Virus record (IMG/VR): IMGVR_UViG_3300036784_000118
Span: 1 to 25,045 of that record
Source of the DNA: a virus
Lineage: Duplodnaviria > Caudoviricetes
DNA: 25,045 nt
Reading direction: 5' to 3' (one strand)
In this document: positions 11,464 through 23,300 of the stretch, in pieces
Layout of the letters: every line of letters starts with the position of its first letter
Numbering within the stretch: the stretch's first letter is position 1
The notes under the pieces: model-generated
Told to the model about the DNA's origin: nothing
Databases searched by the model: none
What the model saw: only the letters and a program-made list of their open reading frames with translations
Made by a program: the position numbers and the translations under genes

Positions 11464-11577
11464 GGCGTCACCGTGGCATCGGTGCAAGCCGGTGCATGCG
11501 CGCCGGTCATGTCGTGGGATCGTGTCGCCATGTTGGCCTTCTTCGGATTTTCGGGGATTGGGACAAGCGCGCAATTC

Positions 11578-11615
11578 AGGCTTTGAAGCCTAAATCCCTG
11601 AATGCCGATTTTCAA
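11578..11615 (-). promoter_or_regulatory. sigma70 promoter for the replication operon, with an overlapping palindrome
   Basis: TTGAAA (11615-11610)-17 nt-TAGGCT (11592-11587). The inverted repeat AGGCTT-TG-AAGCCT (11578-11591) covers the -10/+1 region. Confidence 0.55.
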
Positions 11616-11687
11616 TGCCCGATTAAGGCGGGCTTTATGCTTGGATTACTGGCCGGTCATTATTTCGAACCTGATATGAGATTAATA

Positions 11688-11727
11688 TGATCGCCTTTGA
11701 TCGTCTCTGATCGTTAGTGATCGTCTA
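11688..11727 (+). repeat. 10-bp phased TGATCG array 2
   Basis: TGATCG at 11688, 11698, 11708 and 11718. Confidence 0.9.
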
Positions 11728-12112
11728 AATGCACATTCAGTAATTCTTTAATAAGGTGGTCTAGGTGTTTTCACCGATGAAGGAATTACCTGAGTAATTC
11801 ACTAAGGCTTCAGTATTTGCCTTTCCTGATACTGCCGAAAGCGGTGCATAAGCACACACACATAGTGCGTCACCTTTTTTATGCTGCGGTACGGTATGCA
11901 GGAATCCATTCGGAATTCAAACATGTAAGACCCACGCATGTTGCACTGTGCAACACGCCCGCCTTGTGCCTTGCGTGGCGGGTGCTTCGCCGTTCAATCG
12001 TCATGTTAATGATTTACCGCGAGTAAACACAAAAGTGAACACGAGTCGTATTGCGCCGCCGCACGACTTTTCGCGCTTATGTGGGTTCGCATCCTGCGGA
12101 TTGATTGCCGTC

Positions 12113-12140
12113 TTGCATTCGTCTGCCGCCCGCTTACACT
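12113..12140 (+). promoter_or_regulatory. candidate rightward early promoter
   Basis: TTGCAT-16 nt-TACACT upstream of the plus-strand operon. Confidence 0.35.
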
Positions 12141-12319
12141 TCGCAATTCATACAACACACCCAAGCGATCCGCGCGATTCCGAGCGTGGCGGATAGCCCG
12201 ATTTTTATCCATTGATTTAGCGATTTTTTTCGCGCGACTATTTGCGCCGTTCTGGCGTCTGCGGCTTGCCCGCACGGGTCGTTTCACCTTCAGGGCCATG
12301 AGGGTTTCACACGAGCGCG

Positions 12320-12700
12320 ATGATGAAAATTGCGAACATCGTAATTACGTTATGTGTTGGTGATGAAGACGATTATGCACGCGTGCATCAGGCCATCAAC
12401 ACACTTCAGGCGCTGGTGAGCGAGTCATCACACGACACGAAAAAAGTGCCGATCACGGCTCATGAAGACGCTTTCACAGTGAGCGCTTCACACACTCATG
12501 ATCGTGATGCCGTGCTCGCGGCATCCGTTCGCACCCTGCCGATCAAGACGCGTGCGCATCACGCGCTGATGCTGGCGGGCGTGACTACCATTGCGCACCT
12601 TGTGCGTTTAACCCCTAACCAGTTACGCGAGGTGCATGGCATAGGCCGCGCTGCGGCTCACGCCATTGAACGCGCATTGGATGAACTCCATGTGCGCTAA
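12320..12700 (+). CDS. RNA polymerase alpha-CTD-like domain protein
   Basis: The C-terminal SVRTLPIKTRAHHALMLAGVTTIAHLVRLTPNQLREVHGIGRAAAHAIERAL follows the alpha-CTD helix-hairpin-helix pattern. Confidence 0.7.
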   Translation: MMKIANIVITLCVGDEDDYARVHQAINTLQALVSESSHDTKKVPITAHEDAFTVSASHTHDRDAVLAASVRTLPIKTRAHHALMLAGVTTIAHLVRLTPNQLREVHGIGRAAAHAIERALDELHVR

Positions 12701-12736
12701 AACCCCCGGCTGGTTATTTTTCCGATGAGGTGAATC

Positions 12737-13615
12737 ATGGCTACACGAATGAAGAAAGCCGAAGGTGTCGAAGAGCTTGATGTTCTCGAAGTAGAACGCC
12801 GGGTGATCACCGTGGCGGTGTTAGGCCGCACGCCGCTGATTATGAATCGACTCGCGGAAAAGGCCCGCCAGCAATTGCTTTTTCCGCCACCGCCGAAGAC
12901 GCGAGCGGACAAGCAAGCGCACTTGAAGCACGAGCCGTTGCGTGAATTTCGCGATTCCACACACCGCATCCCTGATGAGGCGTGCGCCACTTTGTTAGGA
13001 ATGCCCACGGTGGCATTCAAGGCCGCGATGCGCACCGCCGCGCTTGAGATGCCCGGTGTGAGCAAGGCGCAAATCGGTCGCCTTGTCTTCATCGAAGGTT
13101 TGCTTGTGCCGGTGTACGGCATCCCGCAAATTCATTCCACCGTAGTGCGCATGTCGGACCCTGGCCGCACACCGGACATCCGCACGCGTTGCATCGTGCC
13201 GGAATGGGCGTGCTATGTGTCGGTGTCTTTCCTTGAGCCGCACTTACGCGCGAAGACGGTGGGCAAGTTGCTCGCCGCTGCCGGATTCATCGCGGGTGTA
13301 GGTGACTGGCGAAGCGAGAAAGGCAGTGGCAATTATGGGCAATTCGAGATTGTTGGCGAAGACAATGCCGAGTTTCAAGGGCTCATCGCGAACGGTGGCC
13401 GCGCTGCACAGGTGGCCGCGCTGAATGATCCGGTGCCCTTCGACATCGAAACACAGGAATTGCTTTCGTGGTTCGATGCCGAGCTTGATAGGCGCGGGTA
13501 TCGCAAGGGTGATGGCGATACGGTGAATGCGCCGCCCGCCGCCGCGAATGGTGCGACATCATCGCGCCCGCCGAAGAAAAACGCGGTGCTTCTGCCGCCC
13601 CACGATGCTCACTGA
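12737..13615 (+). CDS. stand-alone Cas7/RAMP-like protein (VIPR-like effector)
   Basis: First-strand motif VLGRTPLIMN, helix motif GMPTVAFKAAMR (compare RAMP iPgsslKGalR), and a Gly-rich loop GVGDWRSEKGSGNYGQFEIV. GAGGTG RBS. No other cas genes are in the window. Confidence 0.75.
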   Translation: MATRMKKAEGVEELDVLEVERRVITVAVLGRTPLIMNRLAEKARQQLLFPPPPKTRADKQAHLKHEPLREFRDSTHRIPDEACATLLGMPTVAFKAAMRTAALEMPGVSKAQIGRLVFIEGLLVPVYGIPQIHSTVVRMSDPGRTPDIRTRCIVPEWACYVSVSFLEPHLRAKTVGKLLAAAGFIAGVGDWRSEKGSGNYGQFEIVGEDNAEFQGLIANGGRAAQVAALNDPVPFDIETQELLSWFDAELDRRGYRKGDGDTVNAPPAAANGATSSRPPKKNAVLLPPHDAH

Positions 13616-13627
13616 AGGAGATAGGCA

Positions 13628-14107
13628 ATGACGACACGCGAGCAAAGTGGCGCGGTGCGTGAGCACCTTCTTTCCCTGTGCGATAAGGCACAAGGCAATC
13701 TCACCGCCGATGCGGTGGTGGCCGAAGCCACGAATGAGGCAAGCCCGCTTCATCACCTTTTCGAGTGGGACGATGCGAAGGCCGCACACGCTCACCGGCT
13801 CGATCAGGCGCGCATTCTGTTGCGCGGCATTCACGTGCGCATAGAAACGCACCGCGAAACGTATGAGGTGCCCGCGTTTTGCCGGAACCCTTCGACATCG
13901 CGCGGATATGCACTGGTGAGTACGCTGAGAAGTGACAAGGCCCGCGCTCGTGAAGCATTGCTTCGTGAGTTCGTGAATGCGCGTGGTGCGCTTGAACGTG
14001 CGCGCTCGATGGCGGTGGCATTGGGTCTCGAAGTCGAGATTGAGCGGCTTCTTTTAGGTGTGCTCGATTTAACGCGCGCCACCGAAGAGGCCGAAGCGCT
14101 TGAGTAA
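13628..14107 (+). CDS. conserved accessory protein between the RAMP gene and the array
   Basis: 159 aa with LTADAVVAEA...SPLHHLFEWDDAKAA..HRLDQARILL and AAGGAG RBS. Its stop codon directly abuts the array. Confidence 0.75.
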   Translation: MTTREQSGAVREHLLSLCDKAQGNLTADAVVAEATNEASPLHHLFEWDDAKAAHAHRLDQARILLRGIHVRIETHRETYEVPAFCRNPSTSRGYALVSTLRSDKARAREALLREFVNARGALERARSMAVALGLEVEIERLLLGVLDLTRATEEAEALE

Positions 14108-14715
14108 GGCAGGCATGGCACGGCAAGGCCGGGTGGTGCGTGGCCCGGTGCGGTAAAGGCATGACAGGCTAGGCGTGGCGGGGCGTGGATGGGTCATGCA
14201 CGGTCAGGCCCGGTGAGGCAGGCTAGGCTTGTCCCGGATGGGCGGATTCCGGTCAGGACTGTTGAGGCAGGCGAGGCGAGGCGTGGCAAGGCGAGCACTG
14301 GCCGGGTGAGACAAGGCGCGGCATGGCAGGCAAGGCAGTGCTAGGCATGCATGGGTGATTCTGGCGAGGCAAGGCAGGCGGGGCAAGGCGTGGGCTGGTA
14401 AGGCGCGGACGGGAAGGGCATGGCGCGGCGCGGTTCGGCAGGCAAGGCCCGGTGCGGATCGGTTAGGCGCGGTCTGGTTCGGCAAGGCGCGGCACGGCGC
14501 GATATGACAGGCATGGCATGGTTCGGATTGTTCTAGCGTGGCACCGGATCGGAATGGCAGGCGGGGCGAGGGTCGGCGTGGTGCTGAGTGTTGCGGTGGT
14601 GCCCGGTCTGCAAAGGCGTGGCGGGGCGTGGGTGGGCAAGGCAGGCGAGGCTGGGGATGGTGCGGTTAGGCGCGTCTGGGCGAGGTTTGGCAGGCATATT
14701 TGAGTAGGCAGGCAT
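14108..14715 (+). ncRNA. GGY-NN pentamer array; putative multi-guide RNA of 10 units
   Basis: About 108 pentamers, about 77 starting with GGC/GGT by manual count. They are split into 10 units of 9-16 pentamers by 4-nt G(G/A)CA punctuation. No credible ORF. Confidence 0.8.
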
Positions 14716-14731
14716 CAGGGAGAAAACTACT

Positions 14732-15643
14732 ATGGATCGCGAAGCATTTTTGACTGAACGAATGAAGGGTATCGGCGGTGCTGATGCTGCGTGTGCATTG
14801 GGTCTTGATCCATACCGCACGCAGCGTGAGCTTTGGTCTCTTAAAACGGGAGAGATTCAAGACGACTTTGAAGATAATCGTTTTACGCGAGCGGGCCGCG
14901 TGCTCGAAGCCGCGATTGCGGATTTATACGCTGAGCAATTCGGCGTGACGTTGCGCAAGCGCATGGTGCCGGTGGTGCATCCGAAGTATCCCTTCATGCG
15001 TGGCAATCTTGATCGAACCATCACCGGACGGCGTTCGGTTCTGGAAATTAAAAACGTTGATTCGCTCGTGCATCGCACATCCGGTGAGTGGGGCGAGCCG
15101 GACACCGATCAGGTGCCACTTCGATACATGGTGCAAATCCGGCATTACTTAATTATCACCGGCTTCGAAGTCGGTTTTTTAGGTGCGCTTGTCGGTGGCA
15201 ATAATTTGCTTCGCTATGTGATCGAACGGGATCACGAAGCCGAAGATTTTATTGTGCAAGCCGAAGCGGACTTCTGGCGCATGGTCGAAAAGCGCGAGCC
15301 GCCTGAGTTCGACTATGCGCACGCGAGCACCTTGGGTTTGCTGAAGCGCCTGCATCCGGGAAGCAATGGATTGAGCAAGCCGCTCAGTGATGAAGCGCTC
15401 GCATGGCATCAGAAGATCGAAGACGCGAGCGCGCAAATCAAGATGCTCGAAGCGCTGAAAGCCGAAGGCAAGTCGCACATCCTGAAAGAGCTTGCGGGTT
15501 ATGGCTTCGGCACGTTCGCGAGCGGTGGCGAGTATCGCTATCGGGAAATTGAGCGTGCGGCCTTCGAGGTGAAGGCGAGCAAGTATCAGGATTTGCGCTT
15601 CTGCAAAAATCAAACGAAGCCCAACACTGCGCGAGGTGCGTGA
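14732..15643 (+). CDS. YqaJ-like (lambda exonuclease family) viral recombination nuclease
   Basis: RMKGIGGADAACALGLDPYRT, G..LE, HPKYPFMRGNLDR, LEIKN and VPLRYMVQIRHY motifs. Confidence 0.92.
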   Translation: MDREAFLTERMKGIGGADAACALGLDPYRTQRELWSLKTGEIQDDFEDNRFTRAGRVLEAAIADLYAEQFGVTLRKRMVPVVHPKYPFMRGNLDRTITGRRSVLEIKNVDSLVHRTSGEWGEPDTDQVPLRYMVQIRHYLIITGFEVGFLGALVGGNNLLRYVIERDHEAEDFIVQAEADFWRMVEKREPPEFDYAHASTLGLLKRLHPGSNGLSKPLSDEALAWHQKIEDASAQIKMLEALKAEGKSHILKELAGYGFGTFASGGEYRYREIERAAFEVKASKYQDLRFCKNQTKPNTARGA

Positions 15644-16746
15644 TGAGTGACATTGTGAATCCCTTCGGCGCTGAGCCGAAAAATTCAGGCGGCGCGGTGG
15701 CCGCGAATGAAGCACAGCGTGCGGTGAGCGAGGTGCAAGCGGCCTTGATCATCGCGCATCACATGCCGCGCGATCAGAAGCGCTCAATGGATCGCATCAT
15801 CAACGAGTGCACGCGTGAAGGCCTTGCCGCCGAAGCTACCTATGAGTATGCGCGGGGTGGCAATTCGATCACCGGCCCATCGATCCGCCTGGCTGAAACG
15901 GCGGCGCGCAATTGGGGCAATTTCGAATCAGGCGTGAAAGAGATTGCGCGGCATGCGGGGTGGTCTGAATGTCAAGCTTATGCTTGGGATCTAGAAACGA
16001 ACACGCGCGAGGTGCGAAGCTTCGCGGTGCGCCACATCCGGGACACCAAGCAAGGCCCGAAGCCGGTGACGGAAGAGCGCGATATTTACGAGTTGACGGC
16101 AAATTATGGCGCACGCCGCAAGCGCGCTTGCATCATCTCGCTCATCCCCGGCGATGTGTGGGCCTGTGCGCTTACGCAAGTTGATGCCACGCTCAAGATC
16201 AAGCTCGATGTCACGCCTGAATTGCTCGCGCAAATGCTTGAGCGCTTCGCGGCCTTCGGTGTCACGAAGGCGATGATCGAAGCGCGCGAGCAAAGAAGGC
16301 TTGATTCGATTTCGCCCGCTGCCGCTCATCGCTTGCGCCGTATTTATAACTCGCTGAAGGATGGCATCAGTGAGCCGAGTGAATGGTTCGATCTGAGCAT
16401 TGCGCCCGCTGATGGCAAGCCCGCGCAAAGGTCATCCACCGAAGTGATGAAGGAGACGATGAAGGCACGCGGCTCATCCACACCCGCCGCGAAGAAGACC
16501 ACCGCGAAGCCGAAGGATAAGGCCGCGCCGCCACCGGCTGAAGAAGCGGATGCACCCACCTATGCGAGCGTGCGTGATGCGCTTGAGCACGCGAAGAGCG
16601 TGGCCGAATTGGGCACCGCTGGCGATCTCATCGAGAGCATCGCGGATGTCGATCAGCGTGAAGAGCTTGGTGCGATTCTCGATGCCCGCCTTCATGAATT
16701 CGAAGAGGCCGGTGATGATGGCCGCGATCCGGGCGAGCCATCATGA
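15640..16746 (+). CDS. conserved phage protein, putative single-strand annealing partner of YqaJ
   Basis: Coupled to yqaJ, with GPSIRLAE..ARNWGN, AYAWDLETN and ARR.RACI motifs. Function is inferred from position only. Confidence 0.55.
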   Translation: MMSDIVNPFGAEPKNSGGAVAANEAQRAVSEVQAALIIAHHMPRDQKRSMDRIINECTREGLAAEATYEYARGGNSITGPSIRLAETAARNWGNFESGVKEIARHAGWSECQAYAWDLETNTREVRSFAVRHIRDTKQGPKPVTEERDIYELTANYGARRKRACIISLIPGDVWACALTQVDATLKIKLDVTPELLAQMLERFAAFGVTKAMIEAREQRRLDSISPAAAHRLRRIYNSLKDGISEPSEWFDLSIAPADGKPAQRSSTEVMKETMKARGSSTPAAKKTTAKPKDKAAPPPAEEADAPTYASVRDALEHAKSVAELGTAGDLIESIADVDQREELGAILDARLHEFEEAGDDGRDPGEPS

Positions 16747-21166: not shown

Positions 21167-21206
21167 CGTTTGATTGATCGAGAGACAAACTAGAGGGCAC
21201 CGAGAT

Positions 21207-22238
21207 ATGCCGTATGGAATCGAGCTTGAAGACGTGCGCTATGAGGTTGACGCGCACGGCAATCGCACCCGCGCCATCCTGCCGCTCACGATGTTCACCG
21301 CGCTCACTGAATTCTGGATTGCTGCGCGCCGCGCTCAAACCGCGCAAATCGAAGCCACCACCAAGCCGGGAAAATTCAAGACATCGCTGAGCGCTGCCGC
21401 GCCATCAGGCCGCGAGGATGAAGCGGACCCACCCGCGCCGAGCGCGCCGCCATTCAAACATGATCAGCACTGGCAAAACCTTATCGAACGACTACCCGAA
21501 GCCGCCCATCCATCACCCGCATCATCGGCATCGATCTTCACACCACACGCATCACCGGCACCCGCGCAAGCAAAGCCACGGAATCATCAAACCTTCTACC
21601 CGCGTGAGTTCGTTGCGCCGATACCTGATGAGGTTGCCGCGCTGATCGGGCAAGGTGTGTATTTCCTGAAGGCGTGGCGCATGTATCGCGGCCTGACGTT
21701 CGCAGATATCACCGATCTCATCGGCAAATCCAAAGGCGCGATCCAGTATTTCGATTATGGATACCTGAAGCCCACCACGAAGACGCTTGAGCAATTCGCC
21801 CTTGTGTTCGATTGCACGCTTGATCAGCTAACGGTAAAACCCAAAACGAACACACAGGCATGGCTGAAGGTCATCGGCACACCGGCACCCGTGGCCGAAG
21901 AGTTCGCCCCTGAAGACACCGATTACCCTGATCGTGTGCTTCACGCGATGATCGACGGCAAGACACCGCTTCTTGCATGGCGCTTGTATCGCGGTTGGTC
22001 GCTCGCTGATCTGGCGGGCAAGTATGGTGATCGGGTCACCGAAGCCGCCATCAAGAAGCTCGAAGGCGAGCGCACCCTAAGCGCGAAGACACGTGCGAAG
22101 CTCGCGCCGATCCTGAAGTGCACGCCGGTGCAATTGCTCAAACCCGAAGGCTTGGTGATCGAGAAGCGCGAGCGCTATCACGAAGAGTCACCCACGAGCC
22201 GCCGCATCACTCAGGCCATGATGAGCACAGGCCGCTGA
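21207..22238 (+). CDS. tandem XRE-HTH regulator, antitoxin-like
   Basis: Two modules, 'PDEV...G..FLKAWRMYRGLTFADI' and 'PDRV...GKTPLLAWRLYRGWSLADLA'. GAGGG RBS before ATG 21207. Confidence 0.75.
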   Translation: MPYGIELEDVRYEVDAHGNRTRAILPLTMFTALTEFWIAARRAQTAQIEATTKPGKFKTSLSAAAPSGREDEADPPAPSAPPFKHDQHWQNLIERLPEAAHPSPASSASIFTPHASPAPAQAKPRNHQTFYPREFVAPIPDEVAALIGQGVYFLKAWRMYRGLTFADITDLIGKSKGAIQYFDYGYLKPTTKTLEQFALVFDCTLDQLTVKPKTNTQAWLKVIGTPAPVAEEFAPEDTDYPDRVLHAMIDGKTPLLAWRLYRGWSLADLAGKYGDRVTEAAIKKLEGERTLSAKTRAKLAPILKCTPVQLLKPEGLVIEKRERYHEESPTSRRITQAMMSTGR

Positions 22239-22582
22239 TGGTCACGATCAATCTGCGGTCGAATTTCGCCGCCATGCTGACACAAGCCGAAGAGACACGC
22301 GATGCCACCGTGAAGCTTTACCGCTTCATGTGCATCACCGATCTTGATGAAGGTGGCATGAGCGTGACGAATGATATTGAGAACGTGCTGGCGGTGCTCG
22401 TGGCCGAAGGCGCACTAACACCCGGCATGCGCGTGATTTACCGGGATAGCGAAGACTTATGGGATGAGGTGATTATTGATGAGCACTGCAAGTTCGTGAC
22501 GTTCCGTGCGCTGCGTGAAGGGGTGCGTGATGCCGCCATGATGAAGGTGATCGACATGATGCGAGGGCGGCTCGATGGATGA
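22238..22582 (+). CDS. hypothetical phage protein
   Basis: TGATG-coupled start; DLDEGGMSVTNDIE...RVIYRDSEDLWD motif. Confidence 0.65.
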   Translation: MVTINLRSNFAAMLTQAEETRDATVKLYRFMCITDLDEGGMSVTNDIENVLAVLVAEGALTPGMRVIYRDSEDLWDEVIIDEHCKFVTFRALREGVRDAAMMKVIDMMRGRLDG

Positions 22583-23300
22583 TCACGATGCAAGGGTGAA
22601 TGCGCGATGGCAAGAAATAGACGCGGGCAAGCTCACACGCAAGCTTCGGATCGTGAATGAGCAATCGGTCGCGATCAAACTGAAGCACCATGTGCGCGTG
22701 AATGCGATGCTCAACAATCCGCACATGAGCGTGGCCGCGAAGATCAGGATGTTATGGGCGGTTGTCGATGAGATTGGCGCACTTGTCGCGCCGCGTGCCG
22801 CGTGCCGTAAAGGGTGCTCGCATTGCTGCCACATATCCGTGCTAATGCCAATGCAGGAAGCCGAGTTGATCGGCAAGCGCATCGGTGTGAAGCCTGTGAA
22901 GATTACGGGCATCACAGGCCGCGATGATATCAAGTCGGGTTATGACAATCCGTGCCCGTTCCTGAAGAACGGTGCGTGCTCGATCTATGATTCACGTCCG
23001 CTTGCCTGTCGCCAGCATTTCAATATGGATAGCGATGCGCTGTTGTGTGAGCTTGCCGGTGCGCCATCGAAGGTGCCATATATAAACCTGATGGACTATC
23101 AAACGGCACTGGCCATGATCACGAGCACCACGCGCGATAGCATCGAGCGCGAGCCGCGCACGGGCCTGCATGTGCCAGTGTCGATCACTACCGCGCCGGG
23201 TGTTGGCGACATCCGCGAATTCTTTCCGCCGAAGCTACATCACAAAAAGGAGAAACACGATGAGACAGGATCAGATGAATGTGCTTTTCGAAGAGCTTGA
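22575..23300 (+). CDS. YkgJ/CxxCxxCC-family cysteine-cluster (Fe-S or Zn) protein
   Basis: CRKGCSHCCH, CPFLKNGACSIYDSRPLACR. Confidence 0.85.
   Translation: MDDHDARVNARWQEIDAGKLTRKLRIVNEQSVAIKLKHHVRVNAMLNNPHMSVAAKIRMLWAVVDEIGALVAPRAACRKGCSHCCHISVLMPMQEAELIGKRIGVKPVKITGITGRDDIKSGYDNPCPFLKNGACSIYDSRPLACRQHFNMDSDALLCELAGAPSKVPYINLMDYQTALAMITSTTRDSIEREPRTGLHVPVSITTAPGVGDIREFFPPKLHHKKEKHDETGSDECAFRRA

Follow-up and report, generated by a model that had tools for sequence, protein, structure and literature searches.

A phage VIPR array with a predicted guide against the catalytic-motif codons of the CBASS gene cap3

The second of ten units in a phage-borne guide array matches the first and second codon positions of the catalytic motif of cap3, a host defence gene of type II CBASS, and likely directs the phage's own Vipr protein to bind and repress that gene. 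The sequence comparisons set out below argue strongly for a known system, VIPR, an RNA-guided silencer of DNA that is related to CRISPR and was described in 2026 (10.64898/2026.04.26.720920), facing a target class that was not found in print. The footprint of this guide recurs beside Vipr genes in other phage lineages, and a second unit of the same array follows the same code.

The VIPR locus and its array

The window, i.e., the whole 25,045-nucleotide stretch of DNA analysed here, carries the gene set of a temperate phage: a major head protein, a terminase, a replication initiator, an excisionase-like gene, a tyrosine integrase, and a YqaJ recombinase. The vipr gene, a vap-like gene, and the array follow one another in this order (Table 1), and the array lies directly before the YqaJ recombinase gene, amid early lytic-type genes. 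The combination of a Vipr gene, a vap-like gene, and a ten-unit GGY/NN array on a temperate phage identifies the locus, judged from its sequence, as a VIPR system as defined in 10.64898/2026.04.26.720920. No cas gene was found among the ORFs scanned in the window, and an Rfam scan of positions 11500-15000 gave no match.

Table 1. Features of the locus and its surroundings (positions in the window)
Feature	Position	Strand	Description
Direct repeats	11688-11726		three 10-nt repeats, TGATCG core
ORF directly upstream of vipr	12320-12700		RNA polymerase alpha C-terminal-like domain, PF03118, E 1e-7
Promoter match	12473-12502		sigma-70-like, inside ORF 12320-12700
vipr	12737..13615	+	292 aa; RAMP-fold; thumb Arg151; G-loop GVGDWR (D190-W191-R192); phrog_4652
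vap-like accessory gene	13628..14107	+	159 aa; between vipr and array; phrog_15946
vrRNA array	14112..14692	+	ten units, 9-16 pentamers each; boundaries G(G/A)CA/GGC; staggered (1-nt overlap)
Unit 1	14112-14161		decode ITKRGVPA
Unit 2 guide (predicted vrRNA)	14167..14216	+	second of ten units; ten GGY/NN pentamers; decode Y-V-G-V-W-H-T-H-P-E/D
Unit 7	14441-14505		antisense decode IAVALERAYEAG
Unit 9	14560-14639		decode GDSVAVAGPLKVGVW
Unit 10 guide	14644..14688	+	decode E-C-I-A-Y-A-W-D-L; same 1-nt-skip rule
Unit 10 match in own phrog_3657 gene	15967-15992		15/18
Gene past the integrase	21174-22238		354-aa protein with two HTH regions
Gene past the integrase	22575-23300		CxxCxxCC (PF03692) protein

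A profile built from Vipr and 119 homologs (120 sequences) has SUSP1 Vipr (36pp_D) as its sole PDB sequence match, with an E-value of 4e-5. The aligned stretch covers SUSP1 R138 to D177-W178-R179, the conserved arginine and DWR lining up, and the structure paper on SUSP1 Vipr reports that altering D177 or R138 abolishes silencing. The alignment-based model of Vipr (pLDDT 85.5) matches the Csm3/Cas7 RAMPs (E about 2e-5); it was taken instead of the single-sequence fold, whose pLDDT of 35.5 is too low to use. Related loci were found with a multiple alignment query, the single Vipr sequence having retrieved none. The vap-like protein has relatives in viral clusters only, and a PDB search with it gave no match; it occupies the vap position in the operon and is a putative vap gene. 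Neither product reaches the Pfam cut-off for any family. The nearest named Vipr carriers are Paraburkholderia, which at 57-62% identity are too distant for host assignment, and the two nearest of them are without the unit 2 target within three mismatches.

Around the locus, the ORF directly upstream of vipr and the promoter match inside it are listed in Table 1. The three direct repeats, in a GC-poor divergent region that separates the replication operon from the early operon, are possible operator or iteron sites. The two genes past the integrase may be cargo or host genes.

Seven of the ten units have a length of 5n+4, units 1, 5, and 8 having a 1-nt indel, and the units abut with a 4-nt step. 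This architecture fits the staggered arrays described in the legend of fig. S18 of 10.64898/2026.04.26.720920. RNA folding of the units gave no significant structure, and the invariant structured 3' tail of type II VIPR guides was not found in them. Unit 2 parses into the pentamers ggcTA ggcGT ggcGG ggcGT ggaTG ggtCA tgcAC ggtCA ggcCC ggtGA, in which nine of the ten scaffolds start with GG and eight read GGY; when the whole 580-nt array was shuffled, nine GG-start scaffolds out of ten were reached anywhere in 2 of 300 shuffles. This parse reproduces the dinucleotide series TA GT GG GT TG CA AC CA CC GA that had been proposed from the letters of the DNA. A tandem-repeat artefact or a low-complexity ORF was ruled out because the NN positions hold target information in two units, and a CRISPR or TIGR array by the 5-nt period and the Vipr partner.

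Unit 10 is the second of these. It matches 18 of 18 positions, in codon phase, in two of three viral matches (L286:901-926 and L288:901-926), both in 54% homologs of the window phage's own phrog_3657 gene. Given this full match in genes of related phages, the array, as read from its sequence, follows the same code at a second unit, which serves as an internal positive control. The phage's own phrog_3657 copy is matched at 83%, above the published 80% self-target threshold, and unit 10 is likely a case of anti-kin targeting with partial self-avoidance. The array would also serve the known inter-phage role of VIPR. Over the 25-kb window, the self-target check gave a best score of 14/20 for unit 2 and 15/18 for unit 10, and the target of unit 2 lies outside the window, as anticipated by the sequence-only reading.

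Units 1 and 3-9, compared with the retrieved CBASS loci, the VIPR loci, and the window, gave no match clearly exceeding shuffles. Protein-like decodes are nonetheless seen in three of them: that of unit 1 is presumably Phd/YefM antitoxin-like, while the antisense decode of unit 7 and the decode of unit 9 are taken by us to be DUF6900-like and SSB-like, respectively. No target of units 1, 7, and 9 was found in the retrieved CBASS/VIPR loci or the window.

The target of unit 2

The exact 20-base pattern of unit 2, with a 1-nt skip, has no 20/20 match in the genome-contig, metagenome-contig, or viral collections; in genome contigs, about one chance match is expected at uniform composition, and this zero may under-report. 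Codon 4 was freed in the search pattern only after the exact pattern had failed. The codon-4-free scan of genome contigs yielded ~200 matches in all, of which 120 loci, from 40 of 64 parts, were listed. An in-frame YVGxWHTHP[ED] is found in 115 of the 120 listed, the other five being unrelated, and the Prok-JAB family (PF14464) was recognized in 115 of the 117 scanned among those listed, three of the five unrelated loci having ORFs too short to scan. Among the matches listed, 110 of the 115 JAB targets display E or D at codon 4, and the guide-target match is 19/20 in 114 of the 115.

Since 115 of 120 listed matches share one protein motif in codon phase, the JAB/MPN decode of unit 2, Y-V-G-V-W-H-T-H-P-E, which the sequence-only reading had resolved by eye, stands beyond chance, and so does the gap that it had placed at codon position 3 of JAB genes. 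Residue by residue, the motif holds and the V at codon 4 does not: natural JAB targets nearly always have E or D at this position, so the best match is 19/20. The enrichment over shuffled controls was also found, the shuffled-order pattern giving 0 matches in the same genome contigs (~17 expected by uniform chance; the scan may under-report), and the 3-nt-skip pattern likewise gave 0 (~9 expected, with the same reservation). With chance expectations of ~1, ~9, and ~17 and yet exactly 0 each, these zero scans may under-report, and the safer control is the internal rate of five unrelated against 115 JAB among the matches listed. Skips of 0 and 2 nt were compared against the window only. The guide-form pattern gave 0 in genome contigs.

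Gene neighbourhoods were sampled at every second long locus (n=29, with one duplicate; 62 of the 94 listed flanking ORFs scanned). An E1-E2 (Cap2) gene lies directly upstream of the JAB gene in 25 of the 29, accompanied by a cyclase in 23; the remaining loci are one chance match and three JAB genes for which neither a cyclase nor a separate E1-E2 was detected. With Cap2 directly upstream in 25 of 29 sampled loci, the target class of unit 2 appears to be mainly type II CBASS cap3 in cellular genomes. In viral contigs, the codon-4-free pattern gave four matches of which one is a JAB (L273), and a viral JAB was therefore rejected as the main target. The sequence-only reading had left the choice between a host defence gene and a gene of a rival element; the former is favoured by the 25 CBASS loci of 29, and the latter is rare.

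Furthermore, 401 genomes of one proteobacterial class were searched at up to two mismatches, with five matches against one for the reversed pattern. Four of the five are JAB genes. Three are PADLOC JAB genes, two of which follow E1-E2, and the fourth lies beside ThiS-rhodanese-ThiF. This last one (L278, in the unpublished genome G310) scores 18/20, with V at codon 4. The best score in this sample, 19/20, is a chance match in a ppx gene (L276). Among 150 representative JAB relatives, YLGEWHTHPE is the most frequent motif (49), and V is absent from codon 4, the most variable position of the motif core; 140 of them could pair at 16/20 or more, as a best case inferred from protein. No YVGVWHTHP protein was found among 29 homologs of L066 or these 150 representatives. 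Codons 0, 11, and 12, flanking the footprint, are variable among the targets; the footprint of the guide thus coincides with the conserved block.

Recurrence of the Cap3 guide in other VIPR loci

When codons 1, 2, 4, and 10 were left unspecified, the guide pattern gave three viral matches, two of which are guides spelling Y-V..E/D..E/D at the unspecified bases; with codons 1, 2, and 4 free, it gave six loci of three known lineages, all Y..E/D. The scaffold-free guide pattern retrieved nine viral and 20 metagenome loci, and its shuffled version 0 in viral contigs. Of these 29 loci, 22 harbor a Vipr homolog within the retrieved sequence and 26 a repeat scaffold, and three are chance-like. After merging copies, 15 guide lineages remain besides the window, 14 of them with a Vipr gene. 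Cap3 guides occur in both sense and antisense, and the antisense lineage (L251, L252, L259, and L268) carries its version on a GGY scaffold of its own, which points to at least two origins of the guide.

Guide-bearing Viprs long enough for a tree (n=17) are 23-69% identical, near copies apart. On a quick tree with long branches, whose distant Viprs all came from the guide search, the guide label changes eight times, at least four changes being forced by well-supported branches, and it is more clustered than in shuffles. In an unbiased set of 118 related loci, the retrieved flanks contain the guide in three (one lineage), a score of 17/20 being reached by none of 20 shuffles. The Cap3 guide was not found in the Paraburkholderia prophages, the nearest relatives. 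The sister guides have E or D at codon 4, and the V of unit 2, unique among the guides found, is either a point change or the mark of a host allele outside the sample.

Several other arrangements were observed in these loci. In L242/L258 (= L121), a Cap3-motif guide at position 2998 on the minus strand has an NGC scaffold and no Vipr homolog within 3 kb, and is possibly a solo vrRNA. In L256, L257, and L261, the Cap3 guide is located upstream of vipr, outside the downstream array. Distant Vipr homologs (E 1e-8 to 1e-17 against the profile) in L254, L260, L270, L262, and L263 are found with AGC/CGC-rich, non-GGY scaffolds and the same Cap3 guide. Common guides in related VIPR arrays (L174 and L265; L171, L186, L188, L192, and L201) decode as NFPMQANGAEM-like and, in antisense, as xKxRxEHRVPL, which we take to be a family A DNA polymerase motif and a tyrosine integrase motif, respectively.

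Proposed action on cap3 and its meaning

In SUSP1, the rule that 1 nt is skipped, the wobble alignment, and repression are published results, and guides placed inside coding sequences silence. Expression of the array, guide processing, Vipr binding, and repression are inferred here from that system. By this analogy, the array would be transcribed and cut into single guides, each pentamer binding one Vipr; the resulting filament would pair with the template strand, skipping each wobble base, and on cap3 it would block transcription. The unit 2 footprint covers the zinc-binding HTH of Cap3, whose change to ATA gives a catalytic-dead mutant (10.1101/2022.03.31.486616, available part). As the ten targeted codons form this zinc-binding core, the host would find no escape by synonymous change, and a single guide would cover many Cap3 alleles. 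Less Cap3, and less effector where the latter is downstream, would weaken CBASS against the phage. Of 75 distinct loci, 67 extend far enough past cap3 for its downstream neighbour to be read, the other 8 being too short; a CBASS effector stands directly behind cap3 in 25 of these 67 and in one of 27 Pseudomonadota loci, so polar silencing would be a minority route rather than a general one.

The benefit that the phage would draw from cap3 repression is the weak step of this reading. The accessible text of PMC11153139 reports that loss of Cap3 lowers immunity in a B. cereus CBASS; it also refers to an E. coli CBASS in which Cap3 is essential against T4 and T6, as well as V. cholerae and P. aeruginosa systems in which it is dispensable. 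According to the portion of PMC10097602 at hand, Cap3 is required against some phages only. In the available part of 10.1101/2022.03.31.486616, Cap3 antagonizes Cap2, and its overexpression counteracts defence and cuts cGAMP more than 200-fold. This last result would suit a temperate phage that represses cap3 to lift a brake on CBASS, priming its lysogen against superinfecting rivals, as would the tyrosine integrase, the inter-phage roles published for VIPR, and the lack of an effector directly behind cap3 in 26 of 27 Pseudomonadota loci. We regard such priming as unlikely: the array sits amid early lytic-type genes directly before the YqaJ recombinase, Cap3 loss lowered immunity in two published systems (PMC11153139, same portion), and lytic growth of the phage itself would be put at risk by a primed abortive system.

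It is quite unlikely that the relevant target is another JAB gene, be it one carried by a competing mobile element, part of a fused E1-JAB system, or involved in sulfur transfer. Some sources do label such proteins "integrative and conjugative element protein (TIGR02256)", one viral contig (L273) has such a JAB, three of the 29 sampled loci have a JAB without detected cyclase or separate E1-E2, and L278, beside ThiS-rhodanese-ThiF, has the V at codon 4 with a score of 18/20. Set against these are the 25 CBASS loci among the 29 sampled best matches, the single JAB match in viral contigs versus about 190 in cellular genomes, and the sister guides, all of which have the Y..E/D of Cap3, including those retrieved by patterns with these codons unspecified. 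It is very unlikely that unit 2 is a decaying descendant of a cap3 guide, left weak or inactive by a GA-to-GT change. A single mismatch in 20 leaves the guide well above the 80% threshold for natural targets (10.64898/2026.04.26.720920), SUSP1 guides are active at an average match of 89%, the unit 2 scaffold is intact, and no position of the motif core varies more than codon 4, so that a host allele may be tracked; decay would account for the unique V, and three other units do have 1-nt indels. A chance likeness, picked by eye among many units, strands, and ambiguous codons, has a negligible probability. It is true that codon 4 was freed only once the exact search had failed and that chance matches at 19/20 exist, as in the ppx gene, but 115 of 120 listed matches belong to one family, shuffled patterns gave 0, and the ten-codon guide recurs in 14 other lineages next to Vipr genes, the unspecified bases matching too, a recurrence that refutes the chance reading. 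The preferred reading remains that of a guide against cap3.

The locus shares with the type II VIPRs known from Escherichia phage SUSP1 and from a prophage of Pseudomonas fulva (10.64898/2026.04.26.720920 and, in its accessible part, 10.64898/2026.04.26.720927) the RAMP-fold Vipr with its thumb Arg and a G-loop DWR contacting GGY, the two-gene operon (here with a vap-like second gene), GGY/NN guides of 9-16 repeats, the 1-nt wobble skip, a phage-borne location, and one guide aimed at a related phage. In contrast, its Vipr is only distantly related to that of SUSP1 (E 4e-5 over 47 profile positions), its array is devoid of the 40-nt pseudoknot tail, and its guides abut in staggered fashion. Type II VIPRs are reported to target satellites, prophages, other VIPRs, and REP decoys, whereas the window guide would target a host defence gene. 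The closest parallel is SUSP1 vrRNA4 against the F5 satellite recombinase (10.64898/2026.10.15.759431, available part), where catalytic-site codons are likewise covered with the wobble skipped and escape would break the enzyme; there, however, the target is a competing satellite, whereas unit 2 points to a bacterial immunity enzyme, with the same footprint recurring in distant phages.

Other phage-encoded guides that repress the transcription of host immune genes, the viral crlRNAs or Cracr arrays (10.1101/2024.10.29.618823) and viral sgRNAs (10.64898/2026.06.01.729453), hijack host Cas proteins and act on CRISPR-linked genes, as far as the accessible parts of both sources go; the window phage would use its own effector and a gapped code against CBASS. 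T4 Vs.4 and other protein anti-CBASS factors (PMC10097602, in its available portion) are likewise phage counter-defences against CBASS, but they sequester or degrade the signal, whereas a VIPR guide would be reprogrammable and affect a CBASS gene at the level of transcription. No literature on VIPR against CBASS, or on anti-CBASS transcriptional repression, was found, although the target table data S3 and the bioRxiv supplements could list such targets. The terms CBASS and JAB are absent from the main texts of the VIPR preprints and from one PMC13142463 supplement, and Cap3 is absent from the main texts where searched.

VIPR has so far been associated with virus-versus-virus conflict, or with host defence after capture, and the Cap3 guide would extend it to counter-defence with the phage's own effector. 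The evidence leans towards VIPR being also a phage-encoded, reprogrammable anti-defence weapon, distant phages having repeatedly acquired a near-universal guide against ten catalytic codons of Cap3. If true, this would be an RNA-guided "CRISPRi in reverse" that is inescapable by synonymous mutation, and phage arrays could be read for the host genes that matter in defence. What Cap3 does is disputed: in four systems it has been described as necessary, beneficial, dispensable, or antagonistic, respectively. That about 16 phage lineages aim at the codons of its active site would constitute evolutionary evidence that the Cap3 level decides infections. Their repeated selection of cap3 would also imply that natural defence depends on Cap3 activity far more broadly than deletions made in the laboratory indicate.
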